Source: Candidatus Kaiserbacteria bacterium RIFCSPHIGHO2_01_FULL_54_36
GTDB taxonomy: Bacteria; Patescibacteriota; Minisyncoccia; Phycocordibacterales; UBA2100
Direction: 5' to 3'
Length of the DNA stretch: 64,000 nt
Assembly (NCBI GenBank): GCA_001781105.1
Contig: MFKV01000007.1
Location: 4,912 to 68,911, forward strand
Part shown: piece by piece, positions 5,614 to 63,744 of the stretch
Position numbering within the stretch: the first letter of the stretch is position 1
Layout: each line of letters opens with the position of its first letter
Notes under the pieces: model-generated
Database searches by the model: none
Seen by the model: only the letters and a program-made list of their open reading frames with translations
What the model was told of the DNA's origin: nothing
Translations under genes and position numbers: made by a program

Positions 5614-6236
5614 TCAGTACGGACTCCTGCTAGTGGTGACGGGGAACCGTTGGATTGTGACCTTAGTGCCGGTGTCGTCGATGATCCTGACCTCTTCGGG
5701 CCATGGAAGTGCTTCGAGATCAAGGCCAATCTGCTGCACCTGGGTGACACTCAGGATGTCGGCGTAGACACTCGACTCGTGCTCGGAGAACTCCGAGCGG
5801 CCATCCCAGTGAGACGCGGTGAACGTGGTGTCGAGCTGGTCACGGCGGATCTGGAGACCGAGCTCTTGGCGAAGGCCGCGGACAGCGGCTTCGACGTCGC
5901 TTTCGCCACGCTTGCGCGTTTCGCTTATCGTCGAGCTCTTGACCTTCGGAATGATGCGCTTCTTGCGCACGTACTCCCGTTGGATCTCACAGTATCTTGC
6001 ATTGCAGCGCAAGACGGTGACAAAGATCGCCACCCCGAGCGCCACACGCACGACGCGTCCGGTGCTGGTGTAGTGCAGCTGCACCTCGCTGCCTCGGATC
6101 TCCGCGAAGAGATCCGCCAGGGTCTTCGTGCTGCGCCGGTCGTACGTCGCGAGGTTGATCTTTCTGCCCGTGGGCCCTCTCCCTTCGGAGAGGAATTCGA
6201 GCATTTGCGCGTAGGTCACGATTTGAATCGTCATGA
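5614..6236 (-). CDS. NUDIX-like protein with a degenerate Nudix box
   Basis: E-x7-R..LRQELGL resembles GX5EX7REUXEEXGU but lacks the first Gly and has EE changed to QE. High GC3 codon usage unlike its neighbours. Start taken at the internal MTIQIV, because the upstream part overlaps the kinase gene. Confidence 0.4.
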
Positions 6237-15345: not shown

Positions 15346-15354
15346 CTTCCAACT

Positions 15355-15383
15355 ATATGCTAATTCGCGCGAATTAGCATATA
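15355..15383. promoter_or_regulatory. perfect 26-nt palindromic operator TATGCTAATTCGCGCGAATTAGCATA upstream of the second ArsR gene
   Basis: Perfect inverted repeat about 10 nt upstream of the ArsR start codon. Confidence 0.5.
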
Positions 15384-32589: not shown

Positions 32590-32725
32590 ATGCCCGGCAG
32601 GACAATTTCGAATTGCTTTGTATGAATATTCATCAACGTATGAAAGAAAGACTAACCAATGATTTTTGCAAAACGTTCGCAGTTGAAACTGCAGCAGGAA
32701 TTATTCGAAATTGTACTAGCCGGGT
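32590..32725 (+). mobile_element. MITE-like intergenic repeat, copy 1 (136 nt, imperfect ~22-nt terminal inverted repeats)
   Basis: Starts ATGCCCGGCAGGACAATTTCGAAT 2 nt after the ABC ATPase stop. Ends ATTCGAAATTGTACTAGCCGGGT, immediately followed by the permease ATG. Confidence 0.7.
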
Positions 32726-33526
32726 ATGAACAAGCAACTGAAACGCTGGAACCCATGGTGGACACTTACTGACCTCCTCACGATGGTGGAGCGCAACATC
32801 ACCGGCTATCGCCGGGTGCCGCAGCTCCTTATCTTTTCTACCATTCAGCCAGTCATGTTCCTTTTGCTTTTTACCTATGTCTTCGGAGGCGCGATCCGCA
32901 CCGGCGGGAGTAGCTCGTACATCAATTATCTTTTGCCTGGTATCCTTGCGCAAAGTGCGGTCTTCGGAGCGATACAGACGGGTGTGGGCCTCACCGTGGA
33001 TCTCTCACGGGGACTCATCGATCGTTTCCGCTCGCTGCCGATGGCACGAAGTGCCGTCCTTTTGGGCCGCACGATCGCAGACATGCTGCGTAATGTGTTC
33101 GTGATACTCCTCATGCTCCTCGTGGGCTACCTGATAGGTTTTCGACTGGAAGGTACGATTTCAGACGCCGTCTCTGCGATCGCGATCCTGCTTCTCTTTG
33201 GTTTTGCCTTCTCCTGGGTCTCGGCCTGCATCGGCATGGTCGTCAAGAATACAGAGACAGCACAGGTCGCCGGATTCATCTGGGTATTCCCACTCGTTTT
33301 CGCAAGCGCCGTTTTCGTCCCCGTCGAATCTATGCCCGACTGGTTGCAGCATTTTGCAAAGTGGAATCCGGTGACGATCACAGTGAATGTAGTGCGCGCG
33401 CTTCTTCTAGATTCTTCGAGCGCGCAAGACACCGCCACGTACGCGTGGGAAGCACTTGCCTGGATCGCGGTCATACTCATCGTCTTCATGCCTTTGGCAA
33501 TTTGGCTGTATCGCAAAAGTGAATAA
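32726..33526 (+). CDS. ABC-2 type transporter permease
   Basis: Six TM segments and ABC-2 family architecture, directly downstream of the ATPase. Confidence 0.8.
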   Translation: MNKQLKRWNPWWTLTDLLTMVERNITGYRRVPQLLIFSTIQPVMFLLLFTYVFGGAIRTGGSSSYINYLLPGILAQSAVFGAIQTGVGLTVDLSRGLIDRFRSLPMARSAVLLGRTIADMLRNVFVILLMLLVGYLIGFRLEGTISDAVSAIAILLLFGFAFSWVSACIGMVVKNTETAQVAGFIWVFPLVFASAVFVPVESMPDWLQHFAKWNPVTITVNVVRALLLDSSSAQDTATYAWEALAWIAVILIVFMPLAIWLYRKSE

Positions 33527-33669
33527 GCCGGGTGTGCCCGGCAGGACAATTTAGCATAGCTTTTGTCGTGGCCTAGTTCGTACAGCGTTATATCTATTTC
33601 GGTCTCCGGAAATGTAACGTACCGCGAATATCCTGCAGCAGAGACCATGCCAAATTGTACTAGCCGGGT
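33527..33669 (+). mobile_element. MITE-like intergenic repeat, copy 2 (diverged interior, conserved ends)
   Basis: Begins immediately after the permease stop with GCCGGGTGTG-CCCGGCAGGACAATTT. Ends CCAAATTGTACTAGCCGGGT followed by GTG. Confidence 0.6.
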
Positions 33670-33718
33670 GTGCATACTGCCGTTCCCAACAGGGGGGCAG
33701 TTTGGTATTCTTCAGCCC

Positions 33719-41040: not shown

Positions 41041-43683
41041 ATGGCAGAAAAAGATATAGGGGCAGATAAGATCGTCATAAAAGGCGCACGGACACATAAT
41101 TTGAAAAATGTGTCAGTGGAGATTCCGCGCAATAAAATGGTGGTGTTTACGGGACTTTCAGGCAGCGGCAAGTCCTCGCTTGCGTTCGACACGATCTTTG
41201 CCGAAGGGCAACGAAAGTACGTTGAGTCTCTTTCAGCATACGCGCGACAATTTTTGCGCCAAATGCAAAAGCCCGATGTTGACGAGATATCCGGCCTCTC
41301 ACCGGCAATTTCTATCGACCAAAAGAGCCGCTCCAACAATCCTCGCTCCACCGTCGCGACCATAACTGAGATCTACGACTACCTGCGTGTCCTCTACGCT
41401 CGCGTCGGGAAGCCGCACTGCATAGAGTGTGGGCGAGAAGTGCGAAAGCTTTCCAACGAGGAAATCCTGGAGTCTGTGCTAAGCATCGTTGAAGGCGCGA
41501 GAAAGGGCGATGGTCGACCTCGTAGGTCGACCATGCTGACGAAAGGAGTTTCGAATGCGAAGATCCGCATCAGTGCTCCGGTCGTGGTGGGCCGCAAGGG
41601 CGAGTACTACCAGCTCCTCTACGACATGCTCAATAAAGGATTTGAGAAAGTTATTATTGATGGACAAGAAACGTCACTACGCACACGAATAGATCTCAAG
41701 AAACATTTCAAGCACGACATAGATATTGTGGTAGACGAAATATTCATCTCTGAGTTTACCGATGATGCAAAAGCCGCACACGAGCGCGCCAGCGAGGCTA
41801 TTGAGCGGGCGCTGCATGAAGCGGGCGGCCTGGTAAAAATTACCGACGCAGAAGGGCAATCACGCATCGTATCCGCAAAATTCATGTGCCCGTACGACGG
41901 GTTCTCGTTCCCCGAGATAGAGCCGCGGCTCTTTTCCTTCAACTCGCCATACGGCGCGTGCCCGGAGTGCAAAGGCTTGGGCACGAAGTATTTTTTCGGC
42001 GATGAGCCGTGCGATATATGCCAGGGCGCCCGCTTGCGTCCCGAGGCGCTCAATGTGTTTCTGGGCAAAGTGGAGGAGCCGGCAGAGCACAATGGTCCAG
42101 CCATAGGGACCAATATCGTACATCTTTCGTCGCTTTCGATTGAGGACGCGATGGATTTCTTCAACGGGCTGAAGCTCACCAAGAAAGAACAAGAGATCTC
42201 AAAGGCCGTCATCAAAGAGATCACGAGCCGCCTCCAATTCATGCTCAATGTCGGTATCGAGTACCTAACGCTCGATCGTAAGGCCAATACGCTCTCAGGG
42301 GGTGAGGCGCAGCGCATTCGGCTTGCTTCTCAACTCGGTAGCGGGCTTGTGGGTGCCTTGTACGTGCTCGATGAGCCCACCATAGGACTTCACCAACGCG
42401 ACAACGACAAGCTCATACAGACCCTTCAGCGCCTGCGCGATCTCGGCAACACCGTGCTCGTCGTCGAACACGACGAAGACACGATATTCGCTTCTGATTA
42501 CATCGTGGATCTTGGCCCCGGTGCCGGTGTACACGGCGGTGAGATCGTCGTGTCGGGATGGCTAGACGATCTTTTGACCGCGAAAACCAATAAGTCGGGC
42601 TCTCGAACGCTCGGATATTTGCGCGAAGAGGAAGCCATTCCTATACCGGAGAAACGTCGCACCGCCGACCGAGGGAAGATAAAAATACGCGGCGCTTCCA
42701 AATTCAATATCCAGAATATGAATATTGATGTACCACTCGCGAAGTTCGTCGCCGTTTCGGGAGTTTCCGGCTCGGGCAAGTCCACATTTCTGTATGAAAT
42801 TCTCCATCGCAACCTGCAAGCACGCTTCGACAAGCGTTATCGAACTGCGAAAACCTACAATGCAAAAGAATTTTCCGGCACCGAGTATCTCGGCCGGGCG
42901 ATATTGATAGATCAATCGCCGATCGGGCGCACGCCCCGCTCGAATCCTGCCACCTACACGGGAGCCTGGACCCACATCCGCGATATGTTCGCGATGTCGG
43001 AAGAGGCCCGAGCGCGCGGTTGGGGCCCCGGGCGCTTCTCGTTCAACGTGAAAGGTGGGCGCTGCGAAGCGTGCCAGGGCAACGGCCTCATTGCCGTAGA
43101 GATGCACTTCTTGCCGACCGTGTATGTCACCTGCGACGTGTGCAACGGCAAGCGATTCATGAAAGAAACACTGGAGGTCAAATTCAAGAACAAAAACATT
43201 CACCAGATACTTTCGATGACCGTCGAAGAAGCGCGAGCATTCTTCGATGATATTCCCGCAATCGCAGACCGCCTGCAGAGCTTATCTGACGTTGGGCTCG
43301 ATTACCTTGAGCTCGGGCAAAGCGCGACAACGCTTTCCGGCGGGGAAGCACAGCGCGTGAAGATCGCCTCAGAGCTGTATCGCCCACTCATCCAGAAGAG
43401 CATCTACTTGCTCGATGAGCCGACGGTCGGCTTGCACTACGACGACGTCGCGAAGCTTATCCAAATACTGCAGAAGCTTGTCGAGCGTGGCAACACGGTC
43501 GTCACGATCGAGCACAACCTAGATGTCTTGAAATCCGCGGATTACATCATTGATATGGGCCCGGAAGGCGGATCCGCGGGCGGCGACATCGTCGCGAAGG
43601 GGACTCCTGAAGAAGTTTCTAAAACTGATGGTTCGCACACAGGCTATTACTTGAAACGAGTTTTGAAAAAATCCCGCAGGTAG
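41041..43683 (+). CDS. uvrA: excinuclease ABC subunit A
   Basis: Two ABC ATPase modules ([18 protein letters not shown]), zinc-finger CxxC pairs, LSGGE signatures. Contains the in-frame 25-nt palindrome at 41510..41534. Confidence 0.95.
41510..41534. repeat. 25-nt perfect palindrome ATGGTCGACCTCGTAGGTCGACCAT, in-frame inside uvrA (encodes DGRPRRSTM)
   Basis: 10-nt arms containing two SalI-type GTCGAC cores. Identical copies at 47670 and 60160; a compensatory variant at 45770. Confidence 0.85.
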
Positions 43684-43835: not shown

Positions 43836-46800
43836 TTATGAACGATACTCCTCCCACGACTTCGCTTTCAACCCATTGCCTTTCTGTTCCGCAAGCGCTG
43901 TCACGAAGGCCTCTGCGAGCTGGCGGTTGGTGATGAGCGGAATGTTCATATCTACCGCTTTGCGGCGGATGATGGAGCCGTCGGTCGTCTCGCCGGCGAA
44001 GGCACGCGTCGGGATATTGATGATGAGATCCATTCTACCGAGCGCCTCGGAGACATTGGGCGCTTTTTTACTGCTGATCTTGTAGAGCTTTTCACATGGC
44101 AGGCCAGACTCATGCAAATATTCTGCAGTATGCTCTGTCGCAAAGAGTTTGAATTTCGTATTAGAAAGCAGTTTCATCGTTTCCAGTAGCTTCACCTTGC
44201 TCTCCTCGCCGCCGATTGAGACGAGGATATTTTTGCGCGGCAAGCGAAAGCCGGCAGCCATCATGGACTTGAGGAGTGCTTCAGAGTAGGAATCCCCGAA
44301 ACAGGCGACTTCGCCTGTGGACGCCATTTCTACACCTGTCCGTGGGTCAGCGCCTTTGATGCGGCTGTATGAAAATTGTGGCGATTTGACTGCAACACAA
44401 TCGAGTTCGACCGTGCGGTAGTTGCCCGAGACATCCTTGCCAAGCATTGCACGCGTAGCAATGTCAATGAAATTGTGTCCGGTGACTTTGGAAACGAAGG
44501 GGAAGCTGCGCGAGGCGCGCACGTTGCATTCGATGACTTGCAAGCGATTATCCTTTGCTATGAACTGCATGTTGAAGGGCCCGGTGATCTTGAGGGCTTT
44601 GATAATTGCTTTGGTGATCTCTTTGGCACGGCGGATAGTCTCCAGATACGTGCGCTGCGGAGGAAGCACTACCGTAGCGTCACCAGAGTGCGTGCCGGCA
44701 TTCTCCACGTGTTCGGTAATGGCATAGATAGCGAGTGTGCCGCGAGAAGCGACGCCATCGATCTCGATCTCCCGCGCGTTCTCTATGAATTTGGATATGA
44801 CGACCGGATGTTCAGGCGACATGATGGCCGCGCGGTCCAAAAAATTCTGAAGCGTTTTCCTGTCGTACGCGACCTTCATTGCCGCGCCTGACAGGACGTA
44901 TGACGGGCGCACGAGTACGGGGTACCCGATTGTCTCAGCGACAGCTGCTGCCTGTGAGGGAGAGGTGACTTCCGTCCATGCCGGCTGCTCTACTCCGAGC
45001 GTATCGAGAAGCTTGGAGAACACATGCCTGTCTTCCGCGCGGTCGATATCCTCCGGATTCGTGCCGAGAATTTTGATCTTGTTCTTATGGAGTTTAAGCG
45101 CAAGATTGTTGGGGATCTGGCCGCCGGTCGAGACCACGACCCCCTCGGGCTTTTCGAATTCCACGATATCGAGAATGCGCTCGAGCGTAAGCTCTTCGAA
45201 GTAGAGCCGATCCGACATGTCGTAGTCGGTCGAGACAGTCTCCGGATTCGAATTGATCATAATGGTGCGCTTACCGCAGGCCTTCAGCGTCTTCAGCGCC
45301 TGCACGCACGACCAGTCGAACTCGACCGATGACCCGATGCAGTATGGGCCCGAACCCAGCACTGCAACCTGCTTTTTTCCCGGGATGACGTCGTGTTCAG
45401 TGCCATGATAGGTGAGATACAGATAGTTCGTCTGCGCGGGGAATTCGCCTGCGAGCGTATCGATCTGTTTGACTACCGGCAGAATCCTTAGCTTTTTGCG
45501 CAGTGCGCGTACAGACTCTTCGTTAATCTTTTTTATCACTGCAATTTGCGCATCAGAAAATCCGAGCTTCTTTGCTGCTTGCATCGTTTGCTTATTGAGG
45601 CGGTTCTTCGAGATGTGACGCTCGAACTCTACGATGTTGCGCATCTTCTCCAAAAACCACCGATCGATCCCCGAAAGTTTGTGAATCTTCTCTACCGACG
45701 TTCTTCTACGAAATGCCGCTGCGATCGCAAAAATTCTTCGGGTCGTAGGTATCCTGACCTCTTTTTCGCATGATGGACCTCGTAGGTCCATCATTGTTGC
45801 CGGAAGCGAGAATCCACTCGCACCTACATTTAGCATGCGAAGCGCTTTTTGCAGCACCTCTTCGAACGAGCGGCCGATCGCCATCACTTCGCCTACGCTT
45901 TTCATTTCTGTCCCGATACGTTGTGCGGCATTCTCAAATTTGCCCAAGTCCCAACGCGGCATCTTGAGCACCAAATAATCGAGCGCTGGCTCGAAGCAGG
46001 CGGTCGTGATACCCGTGACGGAATTTTTGATCTCGGGCAGCGTGTAGCCGAGTGCGAGTTTGGCCGCGACGAACGCCAACGGATAGCCGGTCGCCTTCGA
46101 AGCGAGTGCCGATGAGCGGCTTAGGCGCGCATTGACCTCGATGACGCGGTAATCTGCTGTCTCGGGGTGCAGTGCATATTGGATATTGCACTCGCCGACG
46201 ATTCCCAAGTGTCGAATGGTCCTGATAGAAATTTCGCGCAGCCGATGGTATTCCTCATTGGAGAGTGTTTGAGAAGGAGCGACTACCATGCTCTCGCCTG
46301 TATGTATTCCCATCGGATCGATGTTTTCCATGTTGCACACGGTGATGCAGTTATCGGCCCTGTCGCGCACGACTTCGTATTCGACCTCCTTCCAGCCGCT
46401 TAGGTTTTCCTCGATGAGTACTTGCGGAGTCGACCTGAATACTTCCGAAAGCTTCGCGGACAGTTCCTCCGTATTTTTTACCATTCCCGACCCTTCACCA
46501 CCGAGAGCAAATCCCGCGCGCATCATGACGGGGTAGCCAATGTCCGCCGCGGCTGCGAGTGCCTCTTTCGTATTTTTTGCAGCGCGGCTGCGAGCAGTCT
46601 TTACTTCTATCTCATGGAGGCGCTTCACGAAAAGGTCGCGATCTTCCGTGTCGCGAATCACCGATACAGGCGTACCAAGTACGCGCACGCCGAATTTCCT
46701 GAGAGTGCCACTTTTCTCGAGCGCGAGGCCGAGGTTGAGCGCTGTCTGGCCACCGAATGAGAGAAGGATCGCGTCAGGCTTTTCTTTCTTGATCACCTGC

Positions 46801-47018: not shown

Positions 47019-48112
47019 ACCTTCTTCAATGAGCGGATGAAGTCGTCGAAGATCCAGGCGGTATCTGTGGGGCCGGGCGAGGCCTCGGGGTGGAATTGCA
47101 CCGAGCGCCAGGGCTTGCTCTTGTGCCGTATCCCTTCGTTGGAGCCGTCATTGGCGTTCACAAACCACTCTTCCCACCCTTCGGGAAGCGTTTTTCCGTC
47201 TACGGCGAAGCCGTGATTTTGGGAGGTGATGTAGCATTTACCCTGAGCGGAGTCGAAGGGCCGGCCACCCTTTAGTTCAATGCATGGCTGGTTTTGGGAG
47301 CGATGGCCGTATGTAAGCTTGTACGTCGAGGCACCCGCCGCGAGCGCCAAGAGCTGGTTGCCAAGGCACACTCCCAGTATCGGTTTGTTGTCCTTCATAG
47401 CTGCGCGAATATGCCCTATCGGGATGCCGCACTGCGTCGGATCACCAGGGCCGTTGGAGAGAACGAGCGCATCGTACTTATCGGAAGTGAAGTCGTAATC
47501 CCACGGTACTCGCGTCACGGTGGTTTCGGGTCGTATGAGCGAGCGGACGATGTTCTCTTTCATTCCGCAATCGAGCGCAATTATTTTGATCGGGCCAGTA
47601 CCGTATGTCTTCTTTTTCCTCGGACTGACTTTTGCAACAAGATTTTCGTCGTTTGGATCCTTGAACTCCATGGTCGACCTCGTAGGTCGACCATGCTCCA
47701 ATCGCCCCAGCATTACCCCGTGTTCGCGGAGCTTCTTCGTAAGTGCGCGGGTGTCTACTCCAGTGATCGCCGGCACACCGGAGGCTTTGAGCCATTCGGC
47801 AAGTGAGTGCTTGGCATCGTGATGAGAATAGTTCTCCGAGTATTCCGAAACGACGAGCCCTGCTATTTGTATCTTGGACGACTCGAAGTTTTTGTCGGGC
47901 TTGCCCTTCGAAGCCTTGGCGAAGGAGGGCACGCCGTAGTTGCCGACCAGCGGATAAGTGAGTACTACGATCTGACCGGCGTATGAAGGATCTGAAAGAC
48001 TTTCAACGTAACCCGTCATCCCAGTGTTGAAAACGACCTCACCAGGGACGTTCTTCGGAGCACCAAAGCTCTGGCCCTCGAACACTGAACCGTCTTTGAG
48101 AATCAATTTCAT
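47015..48112 (-). CDS. carA: carbamoyl-phosphate synthase small subunit
   Basis: CPSase small-chain N-domain plus class I GATase (Cys-His-Glu triad context GVCLGNQLL). Overlaps the carB start by 4 nt. Confidence 0.95.
   Translation of the reverse strand: MKLILKDGSVFEGQSFGAPKNVPGEVVFNTGMTGYVESLSDPSYAGQIVVLTYPLVGNYGVPSFAKASKGKPDKNFESSKIQIAGLVVSEYSENYSHHDAKHSLAEWLKASGVPAITGVDTRALTKKLREHGVMLGRLEHGRPTRSTMEFKDPNDENLVAKVSPRKKKTYGTGPIKIIALDCGMKENIVRSLIRPETTVTRVPWDYDFTSDKYDALVLSNGPGDPTQCGIPIGHIRAAMKDNKPILGVCLGNQLLALAAGASTYKLTYGHRSQNQPCIELKGGRPFDSAQGKCYITSQNHGFAVDGKTLPEGWEEWFVNANDGSNEGIRHKSKPWRSVQFHPEASPGPTDTAWIFDDFIRSLKKV
47670..47694. repeat. 25-nt palindrome ATGGTCGACCTCGTAGGTCGACCAT, in-frame inside carA (encodes HGRPTRSTM on the gene strand)
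   Basis: Identical to the uvrA copy. Lies in the linker between the CarA N-domain and the GATase domain. Confidence 0.85.
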
Positions 48113-55397: not shown

Positions 55398-55534
55398 ATG
55401 CCCGGCAGGACAATTTCGAATCGCCTTGTATGAATATTCACCAGCGTGTGATGGAAAAAAGTGCGACAGTTATTTTGCAAACCAGAAATAGTCGAATCTG
55501 CGGCAGGAATTATTCGAAATTGTACTAGCCGGGT
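55398..55534 (+). mobile_element. MITE-like intergenic repeat, copy 3 (137 nt)
   Basis: Starts ATGCCCGGCAGGACAATTTCGAAT and ends ATTCGAAATTGTACTAGCCGGGT, followed by the ATG of the next gene. About 85% identical to copy 1. Confidence 0.7.
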
Positions 55535-56689
55535 ATGCGCTCGCTCGCACTTCACAGGTTCCTTTTACGCTTCGCACTCGCGGGGGCAAATGTCTTTGCC
55601 TGGATATTCATATTTCAATTTTTCTACCTCATCGAGCCCGATATCGGGCACGCGCTCGCGCGCGTCGCGCTGCTCTACGCGCTTTCGCAGGTGATCACCT
55701 GCCTTTTGACGCCCTATGCCGTGCAAACGCTCCGCGACGGAGCCCGCCCGCTTTTGCTTATCGCCGTTCTTTTCGCGTCGTCTGCGCTGGTCCTTCTTGG
55801 AGGCACCTTCGCAGCGTATTGGAATGCTTCTTACGCGTCGGTGGGTATCGCGGCGTATGCTATAGCGCTTGGCGCGTACCGTGCGTTCTATTTCGTCCCG
55901 TATGAGATAGAAGTGCGTGGGAATGCTAAGCGACCCCGCAGCAGATCCGCAGCTTCGGAACTTCTCATCGCTCTCGCACCGTTCATCGCAGGCATTTTTA
56001 TTGTAAGCACAACACATGGCCCCGTCTGGGTCTTGTATATAGCCGCCGGGCTCATTGCGCTTTCCGCTATCCCACTGCTATACCTGCGCGATATACACGA
56101 AGGCTTTACTTGGGGGTATCGCGAAACGTTCGAGCGACTTTTCCTTCCGTCGCATCGCCCGCTCCTTCGCGAGGCCATTATGGAGGGAATTTCAGGCGCG
56201 GCGTTGCTCCTCTTCTGGCCTATCGCCGTGTTCCTCATTGCAGGATGGTCATATGGGATGGTCGGCATAATTCTCTCACTCACCTTTCTCATCGCGATCC
56301 TGGGCCGCAAACTTGTGCGCAGAGGTATCCGCCGAGCCGGTTTACATCGATCACAGATCCTGAACGCGACCTTCGCCGCCACTCCATGGTTGTTCCGCAT
56401 CGTCGTCGGCAACCCGTTGGGTGTCATATTTGCCGACTCGTATTTCTATACGACGACGCCCCGGCGCATAGGCGTTGATGCCCTTGTATTCGAGCAGGCC
56501 GCCGACGCAGGCTCATACGTGGATGAATACACTGCGCTGAAAGAGATGGGGCTAGCGCTCGGAAGGATCGCGGCATGTATCCTCGTTGCAGTGGTTTCTC
56601 TCTATGTATCGCTCCCGATCGCGCTCGTCGCAGTATTTCTCTTGGCAGCACTCGCCTCCGTCGTCGTCGCTCTGCGCCCGCGTTCATAA
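55535..56689 (+). CDS. hypothetical polytopic membrane protein (about 10-12 TM, transporter-like)
   Basis: Hydrophobicity pattern. Its start codon is supplied at the end of the repeat. Confidence 0.5.
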   Translation: MRSLALHRFLLRFALAGANVFAWIFIFQFFYLIEPDIGHALARVALLYALSQVITCLLTPYAVQTLRDGARPLLLIAVLFASSALVLLGGTFAAYWNASYASVGIAAYAIALGAYRAFYFVPYEIEVRGNAKRPRSRSAASELLIALAPFIAGIFIVSTTHGPVWVLYIAAGLIALSAIPLLYLRDIHEGFTWGYRETFERLFLPSHRPLLREAIMEGISGAALLLFWPIAVFLIAGWSYGMVGIILSLTFLIAILGRKLVRRGIRRAGLHRSQILNATFAATPWLFRIVVGNPLGVIFADSYFYTTTPRRIGVDALVFEQAADAGSYVDEYTALKEMGLALGRIAACILVAVVSLYVSLPIALVAVFLLAALASVVVALRPRS

Positions 56690-60061: not shown

Positions 60062-60664
60062 TCAACGCCTGCTTTCTATCGCGCTCTTGATGGTGTCGGG
60101 ATCTGCGTATTCCAATTCGCTGCCGGTCGAGAGCCCGCGGCCCAGCGCCGTAATCTTCAATGGTCGACCTCGTAGGTCGACCATTTTCTTTCTGACTTGT
60201 TCTGCAGTCGCGTCGCCCTCGGGATTCGCAGGGAATGCGAGTATGATTTCCATTAATCCCGCTTTTGTTCGAGCGGGCACGGCCTCAAGAAGCTGCTTCA
60301 TGCGCAAATTGTTGCCCGTATCGCTTGCGAGCGAGACAGTACCGCCGAGTACAAAGTAGTGCCCGCGGAAATTATGCGAATGTTCGAGGGCGGCAAGGTC
60401 CGCGTCACTTGCGACGACAGCGAGAAGTGAGGCATCACGTCCAGGATCCGTACAGATCGCGCAGACTTTCTCTTTTCCGCTAAAGAAGCGCATGCACTCT
60501 GCACACTGGTGCACCGAGCCGCCAAGCGATTGCACCGCATCCATTAGTTCGCGACGCGTCGCAGCGGAGGAGCGCAGCAAAAATTGCACGAATCGTTGCG
60601 CTTGGCGCGGACCGATACCGGGAAATCTTTCGAATAATTGAGTCAGTCGTTCTATCGAGTCCAT
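60062..60664 (-). CDS. recR: recombination protein RecR
   Basis: HhH motif FPGIGPRQAQR, C4 zinc finger CAECMRFFSGKEKVCAIC, Toprim domain. Contains the in-frame 25-nt palindrome at 60160..60184. Confidence 0.9.
   Translation of the reverse strand: MDSIERLTQLFERFPGIGPRQAQRFVQFLLRSSAATRRELMDAVQSLGGSVHQCAECMRFFSGKEKVCAICTDPGRDASLLAVVASDADLAALEHSHNFRGHYFVLGGTVSLASDTGNNLRMKQLLEAVPARTKAGLMEIILAFPANPEGDATAEQVRKKMVDLRGRPLKITALGRGLSTGSELEYADPDTIKSAIESRR
60160..60184. repeat. 25-nt palindrome ATGGTCGACCTCGTAGGTCGACCAT, in-frame inside recR (encodes MVDLRGRP)
   Basis: Identical to the uvrA and carA copies but read in a different frame. Confidence 0.85.
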
Positions 60665-60671
60665 ATATATG

Positions 60672-60761
60672 CCAATCTACGAATCATACGAATTCTACGA
60701 ATAACTACAAATGAACTACTATTCGTAGCCATTGGTAGATTGGAATTCATTTGTAAATTGG
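60672..60761 (+). repeat. composite inverted-repeat unit A (~90 nt) filling the recR-dnaB intergenic gap
   Basis: Ends CCAATCTACGAAT ... ATTTGTAAATTGG are inverted repeats. Internal 9-mers TCTACGAAT and ATTCGTAG are reiterated in both orientations. Confidence 0.65.
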
Positions 60762-60765
60762 AACT

Positions 60766-62160
60766 TCAAAACGGCGATTCGCCAGAGCCTGCAACTTCCG
60801 TTTCTTCAGGTTTGTAATCGCCGAAGTCGCTCCTATCAATAGAGAGGAAGGTCGTCTTTTCTTCGTCGAAGCGGAGCTCCACTTTGCCGACCGGCCCGTT
60901 GCGATGTTTTTCTACCAAGATCTCGGCAATGCCGGGCCGGTCGGAATTCTCATTCATCTTGTCGTCACGATGGATGAACATTACGACATCGGCGTCTTGT
61001 TCGATGGAGCCCGAATCGCGAAGATCCGATAGCCGTGGGCGGCCTCGTCGTTGCTCAACCGCGCGTGATAACTGCGAAAGTGCCAAGACGGGGATCTCAA
61101 GCTCGCGCGCCATAGCCTTGAGTGAGCGGGAGATCTCAGTGATCTGCTGTACCAGATTGTCGCTCGAGCGCGAATAGGTGGGGGTGATGAGTTGCAGATA
61201 ATCCACGATGATGAGCCCGAGGTCTTTTTCCATTTTGAGCCGGCGCGCGACACTACGCATTGCAAGGACGGTCGTCGAAGCCTTGTCGTCAATATAGATC
61301 GGTGCCTCAGCCAAAACTCCCATACCTGACTGCAATCGCTCGAATTCGTCTTCATCTTTTATCTTGCCGGTGCGAAGCCGCCATGAGTTGACGCCGGCCT
61401 GCGCGGCAAGCATGCGATCCACAAGCTGCTGGGAGCTCATCTCGAGCGAGAAGATGCCGACGGGCACGTTGTACTTCGTTGCGCTCTGGCGTGCGATGTC
61501 GAGCGCAAGGGCGGTTTTGCCCATTGAGGGGCGGGCGGCGAGTATGACGAGGTCGGATTTTTGGAAGCCGGCGAGCAAATTGTCGAGCTGAGGAAAGCCC
61601 GATGGCACGCCGCGAATGGAGCCGCTGTGCTTCTGGAGTCCCTCAAGCCGCTCCCATGCTTCAGCGAGCTCGTCTTTGATGGCAGTGAAAGAGCGCAGCA
61701 TCGGCGTCTGCGTCACGGAGAAAACTGCAGACTGTGCCTCGTCGAGGATCGTCTCGATATCCCGGTCCTCTTCAAAGCCCAGTTCTCCGACCTTCGCCGC
61801 GGCATCAATAAGGCTGCGCAATACGAATTTCGTCTGCACCCCTTGCGCATAATGCCGTGCCGAGCCGGGGCTCGCGGCTGCACCAACCATCTCGGAGAGG
61901 TATGCCGCCCCACCGATCTCGTTCAAGAGTTTGCGCTCCTTGAGCTTGCTAGAAAGCGTTACGACATCGATCGGTTCACCCTTCGCAAAAAGCGCAAGCA
62001 TGGCGTCGTATATAGTGCGATGTTTGCCGGCATAGAAGGAGTCCACGCCGACCAAGTCTGCGACCTCGTAGATCGCATTTTGGTTGAGCATGAGAGCTCC
62101 AAGGAGAGCTCGCTCCATTTCTATGTCTTGCGGCGGCGCTTTTACGCTGCTGGTTCCCAT
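60766..62160 (-). CDS. dnaB: replicative DNA helicase
   Basis: Walker A GARPSMGKT and DnaB N- and C-domains. 464 aa with no intein. Confidence 0.95.
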   Translation of the reverse strand: MGTSSVKAPPQDIEMERALLGALMLNQNAIYEVADLVGVDSFYAGKHRTIYDAMLALFAKGEPIDVVTLSSKLKERKLLNEIGGAAYLSEMVGAAASPGSARHYAQGVQTKFVLRSLIDAAAKVGELGFEEDRDIETILDEAQSAVFSVTQTPMLRSFTAIKDELAEAWERLEGLQKHSGSIRGVPSGFPQLDNLLAGFQKSDLVILAARPSMGKTALALDIARQSATKYNVPVGIFSLEMSSQQLVDRMLAAQAGVNSWRLRTGKIKDEDEFERLQSGMGVLAEAPIYIDDKASTTVLAMRSVARRLKMEKDLGLIIVDYLQLITPTYSRSSDNLVQQITEISRSLKAMARELEIPVLALSQLSRAVEQRRGRPRLSDLRDSGSIEQDADVVMFIHRDDKMNENSDRPGIAEILVEKHRNGPVGKVELRFDEEKTTFLSIDRSDFGDYKPEETEVAGSGESPF

Positions 62161-62241
62161 TGGTCCATCCTATCACGGTCGACTTTCCACGTTGCCGTGA
62201 GGCCGGGTCTAATATGTGTCTTTCGTGGGGACAATGAAGTC

Positions 62242-62337
62242 CTAATCTACGAATCATACGAATTCTACGAATGTCTACAAATTCGCGTGTATTTCATTCG
62301 TAGCTATTCGTAGATTGGCATCCATTTGTAGATTCGG
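62242..62337 (+). repeat. composite inverted-repeat unit B, upstream of dnaB and of the divergent HTH gene
   Basis: 29 nt identical to unit A (AATCTACGAATCATACGAATTCTACGAAT), then the same 9-mer motifs. Confidence 0.65.
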
Positions 62338-62424
62338 ACACATGGCTTGACTCTAGGCCATATCTTTGATAAAACGAAGCCACATTGGCTGAAATAGTCA
62401 ATATACCCAAAAAGACTACTGAAT

Positions 62425-63447
62425 ATGCTTTCATTTTCACCTAAGTCCGCCGCCAAAGACCTCCTCGCGGGGCTTCCTGAGCGATCCCGCCGGGTACTCG
62501 TTGATCGCTTTGGCCTGGGCACAAAGGGCGAGCGCCGCACCCTTGATGCGATCGGCCAGGAGTACGGGATAACCCGCGAACGCATCCGCCAGATCGAGAA
62601 TCACAGCATTACCTCGGTACGGGATTCCGATGCGTACGCTGCCCTCGTTCAGAACTGGGAGAATTTGAAAGCGGCCGTTGCCGCGCTTGGCGGTGTGCTC
62701 TCTGAAGAGACGATCCTTCACGAGCTTGCCAAAAATGAAGCCGACCGCAACCACCTTCTGTTCCTTCTCAGCGTCGGTCACCAATTCGACAACCGCCGTG
62801 AAGATGCGGATTACAAGGCTCGCTGGCACGTTGACGAGCAACTGGCAGAGGCGGTGGAAACGGCACTTTCCAATTTGTATGAATCGATCGAACCCAACAA
62901 GCTCACCGGGGAAGAGGAGTTCCTCGACCTGTTCGGCAAGCACTTGAAGCAAGAGGGCGTAAAGAACAAAGCACCGGAGATGCTCCCGCGCTGGCTTCAG
63001 ATCTCGAAGCGCATCGGGCGCAATCCGCTTGGCGAATGGGGCAGGCAAGATTCTCCGCACGTGCGCATCAAGAACACCCGCGATTTCGCGTATCTCACGC
63101 TCAAACGCCACGGCTCGCCGATGCACTTCACCGAGGTCGCAAAAAATATAGAAAAATTGTTCGGGCGCAAGACGCATCCTGCAACGACCCACAACGAGCT
63201 CATCAAAGACGGCCGATTCGTGCTCGTAGGCCGCGGGCTCTATGCGCTCAAGGAGTGGGGGTACGAGCCGGGCGTCGTGCGGGATGTCATTTCCGGGATA
63301 CTCAAGCGTGAAGGCCCCCTCTCGCGCGAAGAGATCGTCGAGCGCGTAAAGCGCGAGCGCTACGTGAAGGACGCGACCATCGCGGTCAATCTCCAGAACC
63401 CAATGTTCACTCGCACTTCGGAAGGGAAGTACTCGCTTTCAAAGTAA
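62425..63447 (+). CDS. DNA-binding protein with an N-terminal sigma-70 region-4-like HTH and a C-terminal HARE-HTH-like domain
   Basis: RRVLVDRFGLG...RTLDAIGQEYGITRERIRQIE is a region-4 signature. C-terminal ...RFVLVGRGLYALKEWGY matches the HARE-HTH pattern. Confidence 0.65.
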   Translation: MLSFSPKSAAKDLLAGLPERSRRVLVDRFGLGTKGERRTLDAIGQEYGITRERIRQIENHSITSVRDSDAYAALVQNWENLKAAVAALGGVLSEETILHELAKNEADRNHLLFLLSVGHQFDNRREDADYKARWHVDEQLAEAVETALSNLYESIEPNKLTGEEEFLDLFGKHLKQEGVKNKAPEMLPRWLQISKRIGRNPLGEWGRQDSPHVRIKNTRDFAYLTLKRHGSPMHFTEVAKNIEKLFGRKTHPATTHNELIKDGRFVLVGRGLYALKEWGYEPGVVRDVISGILKREGPLSREEIVERVKRERYVKDATIAVNLQNPMFTRTSEGKYSLSK

Positions 63448-63539
63448 GTTCCAATCTACAAATAACACCAATCTACCAATGGCTACGAATAGTGGCTCAT
63501 TTGTAGTTATTCGTAGTATTCGAATGATTCGTAGATTGG
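63448..63539 (-). repeat. composite inverted-repeat unit C (reverse-complement orientation), immediately after the HTH gene stop
   Basis: The reverse complement is about 90% identical to unit A over ~90 nt. Confidence 0.65.
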
Positions 63540-63744
63540 TACATGCTAAAATTAGCATGTGATCCATGAACACGAACAGACCGGTATCACGAGCGGGTCG
63601 AGATTGAAAGGATCATTTCTTGGCCCCCTTTTTAGTTTCAATCTACACTCGTTCGTAGACGACTTTTGGGGCAATGGGTGGGGTATTTCCCGATGCCTCA
63701 TTCTGAGCATCATTTTCTGGGGACTTTTTGCAGTCCTTGGGAAC

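Follow-up and report, generated by a model that had tools for sequence, protein, structure and literature searches.

Box-array palindromes around dnaB in a Kaiserbacteria contig as probable gene-less derivatives of a minimal nuclease cassette

A 64,000-nt stretch of the Candidatus Kaiserbacteria bacterium RIFCSPHIGHO2_01_FULL_54_36 genome (contig MFKV01000007.1, positions 4,912 to 68,911 of the forward strand; hereafter the window) carries three palindromic arrays of reiterated short boxes, units A, B and C, around dnaB, the replicative helicase gene, and a gene encoding a DNA-binding protein with Sigma70_r4 and HARE-HTH domains (the HTH protein). The locus thus raises the question of whether the arrays belong to the genes that they adjoin. 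The initial annotation favored iterons or a transcription-factor binding array and offered a second family of miniature inverted-repeat transposable elements (MITEs) as the fallback. The fallback proved essentially right, as many dispersed copies unrelated to replication or to the regulator are present in other genomes. In our judgment units A–C are probably gene-less miniature members of an intergenic palindromic repeat family of Patescibacteria, derived from a nuclease cassette of ~0.46 kb.

Inspection of the letters and a repeat search of the window place the three units around dnaB where they had been reported. The units are 95–101 nt long, are non-coding apart from five-codon relic open reading frames (ORFs) in A and C, and follow one plan, with two ~44-nt arms on either side of an 8–13-nt centre. 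One arm consists of a single long 13-mer box and short boxes, the other of a short box and two long boxes that are 17–18 nt apart. The short boxes are phased, CTACRAAT recurring every 9–10 nt, and the arm termini (terminal inverted repeats of ~44 nt) read (A)GTnCCAATCTAC...GTAGATTGGnAC. Unit A (60665–60765, plus strand) takes up all 101 nt that separate the recR start codon (CAT, 60662–60664) from the dnaB stop codon (TCA, 60766–60768), and its cassette polarity runs from left arm to right arm on the plus strand. The left arm (60670–60712) comprises the long box CCAATCTACGAAT (60672–60684) followed by the phased short boxes CATACGAAT, TCTACGAAT and AACTACAAAT; the right arm (60721–60764) comprises ATTCGTAGCC and the long boxes ATTGGTAGATTGG (60731–60743) and ATTTGTAAATTGG (60749–60761), followed by AAC. 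The relic ORF of unit A (60711–60728, plus strand; ATG AAC TAC TAT TCG TAG, MNYYS*, five codons) has its start codon in the inner left box and its stop codon in the first right-arm box. Unit B (62239–62339, plus strand) lies in the spacer of the divergent dnaB and HTH genes, and its left arm (62239–62282) and right arm (62296–62339) enclose the centre TCGCGTGTATTTC (62283–62295). Unit C (63448–63542, minus strand) is inverted with respect to A and directly follows the stop codon of the HTH gene (TAA, 63445–63447); it consists of the two-long-box arm (63448–63490), the centre (63491–63498) and the one-long-box arm (63499–63542), with the relic ORF MSHYS* at 63483–63500 on the minus strand.

The reported 29-nt block identical in A and B is indeed present (60674–60702 equals 62244–62272), and the description of C as the reverse complement of A agrees with inverted copies that are 92% complementary over 77 nt. 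The shared unit ends required correction, the B left end being CTAATCTACGAAT, the A right end ATTTGTAAATTGG and the B right end ATTTGTAGATTCGG. The count of six to eight 9-mers per unit stands only if degenerate boxes are included; allowing at most one mismatch, the units hold 4 (A), 6 (B) and 5 (C). At that same stringency the 9-mer TCTACGAAT has 31 matches in the window versus 13.6 ± 3.5 expected, with 16 of the 31 falling within 60676–63659 and the remaining ~60 kb at chance level. The 13-mer CCAATCTACRAAT, with up to two mismatches, has 10 matches in the window versus 2.3 expected, and nine of these are in the units, three in each. A family profile built from 70 members and run with nhmmer recovered unit B at 62236–62341 (E 3.2e-24), unit A at 60668–60766 (E 2.6e-21) and unit C at 63445–63544 (E 1.4e-20), and at E ≤ 10 it returned no further member across the window and the 10 kb that follow it. 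A small palindrome with a box core, CAATCTACACTCGTTCGTAGA at 63634–63660, falls within the 5′ portion of the next ORF and is missed by this profile. The ATG...TAG junction is common to units A and C, which are also 92% identical; they therefore appear to be copies of one gene-less ancestor. The A/C pair is the only evidence within the window that gene-less units are themselves copied.

The distribution of the family was assessed with a pattern scan for AATCTACNAAT-N35-65-ATTNGTAGATTGG (22 specified bases) in one genome per species, 596 Gb in all, for which a hand calculation predicts ~2 chance matches. The scan returned at least 119 matching stretches, two of which look like chance (L077 and L127; L numbers designate loci in other assemblies), and the palindrome of the units, with the 13-mer CCAATCTACnAAT at its boundaries, has at least 117 occurrences. 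All matches listed other than these two share the architecture of units A–C. The stretches come from ~70 assemblies, by a hand count of accession prefixes, and the hosts are Kaiser-, Uhr-, Roizman-, Lipton-, Sung-, Moran- and Nomurabacteria, Paceibacterota and unclassified Patescibacteria. Between groups, the ribosomal proteins S4 and S3 of the hosts share only 31–55% identity, and the box motif is therefore far better conserved than its hosts. Within one genome the copies are near-identical, including their ends, and often sit at contig ends; JAUSGQ01 carries them on at least five contigs and MGDU01 on at least six. The elements occupy short intergenic gaps (48 plus-plus, 33 minus-minus, 15 divergent and 8 convergent), bordered by a stop codon at one junction and, at the other, by a start codon a few nt off, and consecutive gaps are often filled, as in this window; nine clusters are found in 16 kb of JAUSGQ010000015.1, for example. 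No gene family is enriched among the 97 ORFs whose start adjoins an element, and a regulon was rejected on this ground. Viral contigs gave 0 matches, which led us to reject a phage vector for the elements. A literature search returned no description of the box motif or of MITEs in Patescibacteria. In L108 (5626–5714) one arm has a duplicated long box. Several TPA_asm metagenome-assembled genomes (L130/L119 of CAYHST01, L040/L041 and others) bear NCBI organism labels that disagree with their ribosomal proteins: S3 of the CAYHST 'Saccharibacteria' is 84–88% identical to that of L026 (Parcubacteria GW2011) and of bin.131, both carriers of Kaiserbacteria-type elements. The NCBI labels of a number of element hosts look unreliable.

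The gene-bearing form of the family was reached through orphan half-elements, which pointed to L056, where a PDDEXK_3 ORF is enclosed by two arms. By tblastn, L125 proved to have the same arm-ORF-arm arrangement, as did L032, where the boxes are variant. Searched against proteins, the L125 ORF yielded 641 homologues annotated as 'GxxExxY protein', and the named ones are all from Patescibacteria. Box arms directly flank the ORF in all seven distinct Patescibacteria GxxExxY loci examined (L125, L056, L032, L216, L217, L220 and L223), and the GxxExxY nuclease ORF is the only gene found between arms at these seven loci. The cassettes are ~0.46 kb long and encode a protein of 124–130 amino acids (GxxExxY; PF13366, PD-(D/E)XK). 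They are inserted between housekeeping genes: the 462-bp cassette of L216 lies between the genes for RRF and an M50 peptidase, a site occupied in two related genomes (L125 and L216), those of L217 and L223 between MYG1 and Obg, and that of L220 between RuvA and Fpg. The left arm starts 0–3 nt past the stop codon of the upstream gene, and the right arm has two long boxes and in L216 and L223 ends ~4–6 nt before the ATG of the next gene. In L216 and L125 the ORF starts at an ATG in the innermost left box (CGA ATG GCT ACA AAT, MATN), and the first right-arm box (ATTCGTAG) supplies its TAG stop codon. The seven Patescibacteria genes have flanking inverted-repeat scores of 9 to 16; the scores of 501 control ORFs reach 8 at the 95th percentile, 10 at the 99th and 12 at most. 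In L125 the gene-bearing cassette has its right arm in triplicate at 5686–5850, the tandem copies being spaced by CATAATGATTT.

Profile matches place the cassette ORFs firmly within the GxxExxY family (TIGR04256/PF13366, PDDEXK_3); the window has the gene-less arms only. The ORF scores 75.2 bits against TIGR04256 (cut-off 35) and 90.9 bits against PF13366 (cut-off 22; E 1e-25), and the catalytic D...ExK residues are intact, with D69, E79 and K81 invariant in 35 homologues. An AlphaFold2 model of the nuclease has a predicted local distance difference test (pLDDT) score of 89, and its nearest matches in the PDB are Cas4, lambda-exonuclease-like enzymes, tRNA-splicing endonucleases and Hjc; all are PD-(D/E)XK proteins, and the matches are weak and distant, with a TM score of ~0.5. 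A profile search for GxxExxY/PDDEXK_3 returned 6872 cluster representatives at 50% identity (E ≤ 0.001). Many of these (P0245, P0249, P0252, P0254 and others) are 250–900 amino acids long with the 125-residue domain terminal or internal, and are probably gene-call fusions with tightly abutting neighbors. A superfamily survey lists the function of PF13366 as unknown and notes multiple horizontal transfers (PMC3424549). The few papers found to mention GxxExxY, PDDEXK_3, PF13366 or TIGR04256 yielded no link to flanking repeats, cassettes or mobility. The box sequence shifts with the divergence of the nuclease, from CCAATCTAC to ATCGCTAAT/GCGAAT in L032 and CACAGAGA in Bernardetia, where a 28-nt inverted repeat of CACAGAGA boxes (86%) flanks the GxxExxY gene.

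The relation of the units to this cassette is close. The arms of unit A match those of the L216 and L125 cassettes at 36–38 of 44–45 nt, those of unit B at 38–41 of 44 nt and those of unit C at 36–39 of 43–44 nt, giving an arm identity of 82–93%. In addition, the relic ORFs MNYYS* (A) and MSHYS* (C) recall the C-termini of the nucleases, ...RNYS* in L216 and ...RNHS* in L125. As the units match the L216/L125 arms, and A and C keep an ATG...TAG relic, they are best described as miniature, gene-less derivatives of the nuclease cassette, each corresponding to a left arm, an 8–13-nt centre and a right arm, that is, to the cassette minus its ORF. A translated mini-ORF in the units was rejected, as the distance from ATG to TAG is in frame in just 7 of 16 copies. 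By the proposed mechanism, the boxes CCAATCTACnAAT, in which position n is free, would be binding sites of the cassette nuclease, which would cut at or near the paired arms. Cutting would allow new intergenic gaps to receive copies of the cassette and, in trans, of its gene-less derivatives, so that one small protein may both recognize the boxes and move the two forms. The units could persist at no cost, and are presumably tolerated here because the stop codons, start codons and promoters of their neighbors stay intact. They may conceivably influence the expression of dnaB, recR or the HTH gene.

Several results weigh against this derivation. The copies documented in this genome are only three, and they are clustered, in the 74 kb examined; tblastn found no GxxExxY gene within the window. 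Alignments within genomes revealed no consistent direct repeat or target-site duplication around the copies, and no presence/absence polymorphism was caught between near-identical strains, L001–L008 being identical. A PD-(D/E)XK core of 125 residues is not known to serve as a transposase by itself. Of five GxxExxY genes checked outside Patescibacteria, clear flanking inverted repeats are present at only two, the Bernardetia gene described above and a Treponema gene flanked by a 16-nt repeat; nothing clear was seen around those of Persicobacter, Fusobacteria and Gemmatirosa. In bin.131 the centres of the gene-less copies are near-constant in length and unrelated in sequence, a pattern not expected if one master copy had simply been amplified. 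Finally, ~14 of the 119 blocks appear within ribosomal-protein operons, between cistrons, ~4–5 times the expected number by a hand estimate, and this excess could reflect function rather than selfish spread.

The bin.131 centres bear on a different order of events, in which the gene-less palindromes are primary and the GxxExxY ORF is a later invader of their centre, copied in by repair in the manner of a homing endonuclease, with units A–C as empty homing sites. A centre of constant length and variable sequence is what a repeatedly cut and repaired site would show. Gene-less copies outnumber gene-bearing ones by ~130 to 3 in 870 kb, the ORF sits exactly at the loop position with its first and last codons overlapping the arms in L216 and L125, and the same sites are occupied in pairs of genomes, RRF|M50 peptidase in L125 and L216 and MYG1|Obg in L217 and L223. 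Such invasion leaves the spread of gene-less palindromes to new gaps unexplained, however, and the relic ATG...N-Y/H-S-TAG of A and C resembles the termini of the nuclease, as a deletion would leave it. We regard this order of events as rather unlikely. Free-standing homing endonuclease genes such as seg and mob of T-even phages resemble the cassettes in being small nuclease ORFs that are fitted tightly between housekeeping genes, relatives either having or lacking them at a given site. They differ in that they have neither inverted repeats of box arrays nor dispersed gene-less palindromes and usually encode LAGLIDADG, GIY-YIG, HNH or His-Cys enzymes; the genomic signature, an ORF between conserved genes and one site filled in related genomes, is seen in the cassettes.

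A second possibility is that the units are a conventional MITE moved by a DDE or HUH transposase, the GxxExxY gene being a mere passenger in some copies. The units are small and non-coding, with terminal inverted repeats, the family is multi-copy and patchy, and the multiple subterminal boxes recall the arrays of transposase-binding sites in the Tn7, Mu and IS21 families. Against this, no transposase was found in 870 kb around ~130 elements, no target-site duplication was seen, the start and stop codons of the L216 and L125 nucleases lie inside boxes, and no other gene was found between arms at the seven loci. The sole Y1_Tnp gene found (L106; PF01797, E 9e-16) has its own, different inverted repeats, and a RAYT/IS200 partner was rejected on this basis with RAYT and IS200 query sequences that may contain errors; no Y1_Tnp gene was detected within the window. 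The passenger scenario therefore appears quite improbable.

Derivation from the cassette places the units among known MITE-like families, with which they have much in common. As in the Correia elements of Neisseria, pneumococcal RUP and cyanobacterial Nezha, the units are small, non-coding and intergenic, with terminal inverted repeats and hairpin potential, and their family is multi-copy in other genomes; they are patchy between relatives and probably internally deleted kin of a longer gene-bearing element with the same ends. Apart from the missing target-site duplication, they differ in that the gene-bearing relative, at only ~0.46 kb, codes for a 125-residue PD-(D/E)XK nuclease instead of a DDE transposase, that the arms are phased arrays of 9–13-nt boxes and not a single terminal repeat, and that one box motif is common to hosts as divergent as the ribosomal proteins indicate. 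The kind of family is thus familiar; the 0.46-kb parent with a minimal PD-(D/E)XK nuclease and the taxonomic spread are unusual. A likeness to REP/BIME sequences and to REPINs with their RAYT (Y1 HUH) is also evident, in extragenic palindromes that gather in the short gaps of co-transcribed genes, in doublets that form ~100-nt hairpins, in the GTAG core of every box and in the different palindromes found in orthologous gaps of related species. In contrast to the REPIN-RAYT system, the associated gene is not a RAYT and lies inside the palindrome, whereas RAYT is a single-copy gene flanked by REPs. More tentatively, we suggest that GxxExxY/PDDEXK_3 proteins in general may be the nucleases of previously unrecognized minimal selfish cassettes of ~0.45 kb, with inverted arrays of nuclease-recognized boxes, precise stop/start insertion between housekeeping genes and MITE-like gene-less offspring, throughout Patescibacteria and, with other boxes, in some other phyla (Bernardetia, Treponema).

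The excess in ribosomal-protein operons bears on a further alternative, that the units are of mobile origin and are now kept for a host function, either as mRNA hairpins for processing or stability or as sites for gyrase or nucleoid proteins as in REP/BIME. By this account the units would serve to uncouple recR and dnaB and to insulate the HTH gene. Each unit does fold as a long imperfect hairpin on either strand, with free energies of −23 to −37 kcal/mol and z-scores of −4.6 to −6.2; the arms of a unit A orthologue in L059 look conserved by eye and its centre diverged; and relatives have other palindromes or terminators in orthologous gaps, as if a hairpin were tolerated or favored there. Nevertheless, at position n of the outer boxes, which is free, the two arms are complementary in 66 of 173 cases versus 65.4 expected. 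Complementarity at chance level implies that the conserved feature is the sequence of the boxes and not their pairing, which points to recognition by a protein, and a hairpin under selection was rejected for want of covariation at this position. The two long boxes form a promoter-like pair (TTnGTA-N16-TAGATT), the orientation of which relative to genes is random, arm polarity with respect to transcription splitting 20 against 19; a consensus scan called no promoter in the units and one weak terminator-like stem, inside unit C. A promoter or terminator role was rejected from these two results. No Rfam family matched the units, the only hit being a sub-threshold chance match to sn2317 (28 bits versus a gathering score of 50). 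Moreover, close relatives lack units in the dnaB|HTH gap, and the recR-dnaB gaps of L143, L009 and L011 are 3–26 nt long with no palindrome. Retention for a host function is accordingly judged unlikely.

Comparison of the same locus in relatives shows that the units are lineage-specific additions. The gene order recR-dnaB (minus strand) | HTH-474 aa-YceG-MnmA (plus strand) is kept in relatives and the arrays are not. In L009 and L011 recR starts 3–4 nt past the dnaB stop codon, where unit A intervenes in this genome, and no box occurs in any of the three corresponding spacers of L009, L011 and L013. No box cluster was seen in 80 further syntenic loci (446 kb; HTH proteins 71–88% identical), and the family profile found a single member in them, at the C site of L143, with junctions as in unit C and the opposite arm polarity. 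The dnaB-recR gap of L059 holds the orthologue of unit A, identical in orientation and junctions, with arms that are similar by eye (a likeness that was not quantified) and unrelated 8-nt centres. Thus L143 (C site) and L059 (A site) are the only ones of more than 80 syntenic relatives with the same HTH gene to hold any unit. Unit B is absent from the dnaB|HTH spacer of L009, L011, L013, L059 and L143. Nearer relatives by DnaB identity (88–91%) have other palindromes or nothing in the dnaB-recR gap. The C site is occupied by a palindrome of GTAGTAA boxes in L214 (92% HTH identity), by one of GCAAAAGG boxes in L134/L215 and by an ordinary terminator in L013. Because the spacers of relatives hold different palindromes or none, the spacers of the dnaB/HTH locus appear to be sites of palindromic-element turnover. 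Further reiterated-box palindromes in orthologous spacers are found at 1113–1195 of L214, 2167–2275 of L134, ~1400–1480 of L138 and ~1225–1325 of L145, with box types GTAGTAA, GCAAAAGG and GTATAGAGTAT, which suggests that several such families may compete for the same gaps. A lone box-like TTTGAAGATTGGAC at ~9885–9900 of L009, upstream of the HTH promoter in a genome without unit B there, may be a decayed remnant.

These comparisons also settle the reading from which the analysis started, that the arrays are iterons of an origin by dnaB or operators of the HTH protein, and that A and C delimit a composite element. The arrays do cluster around dnaB and a gene for a DNA-binding protein, the two genes diverge at the spacer that holds unit B, and elements also adjoin dnaB in L087 and recR in L035. 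The units have in common with plasmid or oriC iterons and with operator arrays the reiterated short boxes, in both orientations and with approximately helical phasing, near a replication gene. They differ in that they are not conserved with their neighbors, are not accompanied by DnaA boxes or a rep gene, and elsewhere lie beside unrelated genes genome-wide, the same elements adjoining unrelated genes in ~70 species. No TTATCCACA-like DnaA site occurs in 60–64 kb of the window, and there is no GC-skew switch at the site of the units. An HTH homologue is encoded in only 2 of the 119 element-bearing blocks listed, and the near absence of family members from the 80 loci with close HTH homologues likewise speaks against a binding array of this protein. 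The adjacency of dnaB and the HTH gene is ancestral, being older than the units and kept in relatives without them, and this removes the basis for a composite element. The iteron, operator and composite interpretations were therefore rejected, given no DnaA boxes, no co-occurrence with the HTH gene and ancestral dnaB-HTH synteny, and we consider them hardly credible.

The neighboring genes are themselves readily identified. The minus strand carries recR (60062–60664; TIGR00615, E 4e-42) and dnaB (60766–62160; TIGR00665, 528 bits), the latter a neighbor of the units that lies outside the element. The gene at 62425–63447 on the plus strand has the unusual domain architecture that had been noticed in it, with Pfam matches to Sigma70_r4 (E 1.7e-14) and HARE-HTH (E 6.4e-10), and is likewise a neighbor of the units, not their partner. 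At least 8000 homologues of its product were found, the best 120 of which are 76–97% identical, and it appears to be a conserved gene of Patescibacteria. A promoter-like motif that may serve this gene, TTGACT-N17-TAAAAC (62347–62375, plus strand), lies just outside unit B and recurs as CTTGACTC...TTTGATACAACG in L009, L011, L013, L134, L214 and L215, all without unit B; the consensus promoter scan did not call it. Immediately to the right of unit C, TGCTAAAAT (63544–63552, plus strand) resembles an extended −10 element and would belong to the next gene; its counterparts are TGCTAGAAT in L143 and TAGAAT in L214. It ends 7 nt ahead of the predicted GTG start of that gene (63559), where relatives have ATG, and with so short a distance the mRNA may be leaderless. 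The palindrome ACATGCTAAAATTAGCATGT (63542–63561), also right of unit C, is akin to a type of short palindrome, TTATTTGCTAATTC-N4-GAATTAGCAAATA, that occurs at 1610–1640, 1964–1994 and 15353–15383 of the window. Three copies of another repeat family, ~140 nt long and ending in TGCCCGGCAGGACAATTT...AAATTGTACTAGCCGGGTA, are found at 32590–32728, 33535–33672 and 55398–55537; it is probably the first MITE family of the initial annotation. In addition, a perfect palindrome of 24–28 nt, ATGGTCGACCTCGTAGGTCGACCAT, lies inside four different long ORFs (41510–41537, 45770–45797, 47670–47697 and 60160–60187) and is read in different frames, as MVDLRGRP in RecR and MMDLRGPS elsewhere. In RecR it falls at a variable loop, where relatives have unrelated residues over about the same length, and it resembles a very small in-frame palindromic element of coding regions.

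The link of the repeats to dnaB and the HTH protein was tempting but wrong and is now removed, and the findings bear on mobile-element and Patescibacteria genomics and little on dnaB regulation. They matter for annotation, since elements of this kind interrupt assemblies and give rise to false gene fusions in metagenome bins. The repeat family is common to very divergent Patescibacteria, whose tiny genomes are usually regarded as poor in mobile DNA, and it is now tied to a nuclease family with a function listed as unknown. If the nuclease recognizes the boxes, the cassettes would be among the smallest self-contained mobile units known in bacteria and would constitute a natural source of sequence-programmed PD-(D/E)XK nucleases.

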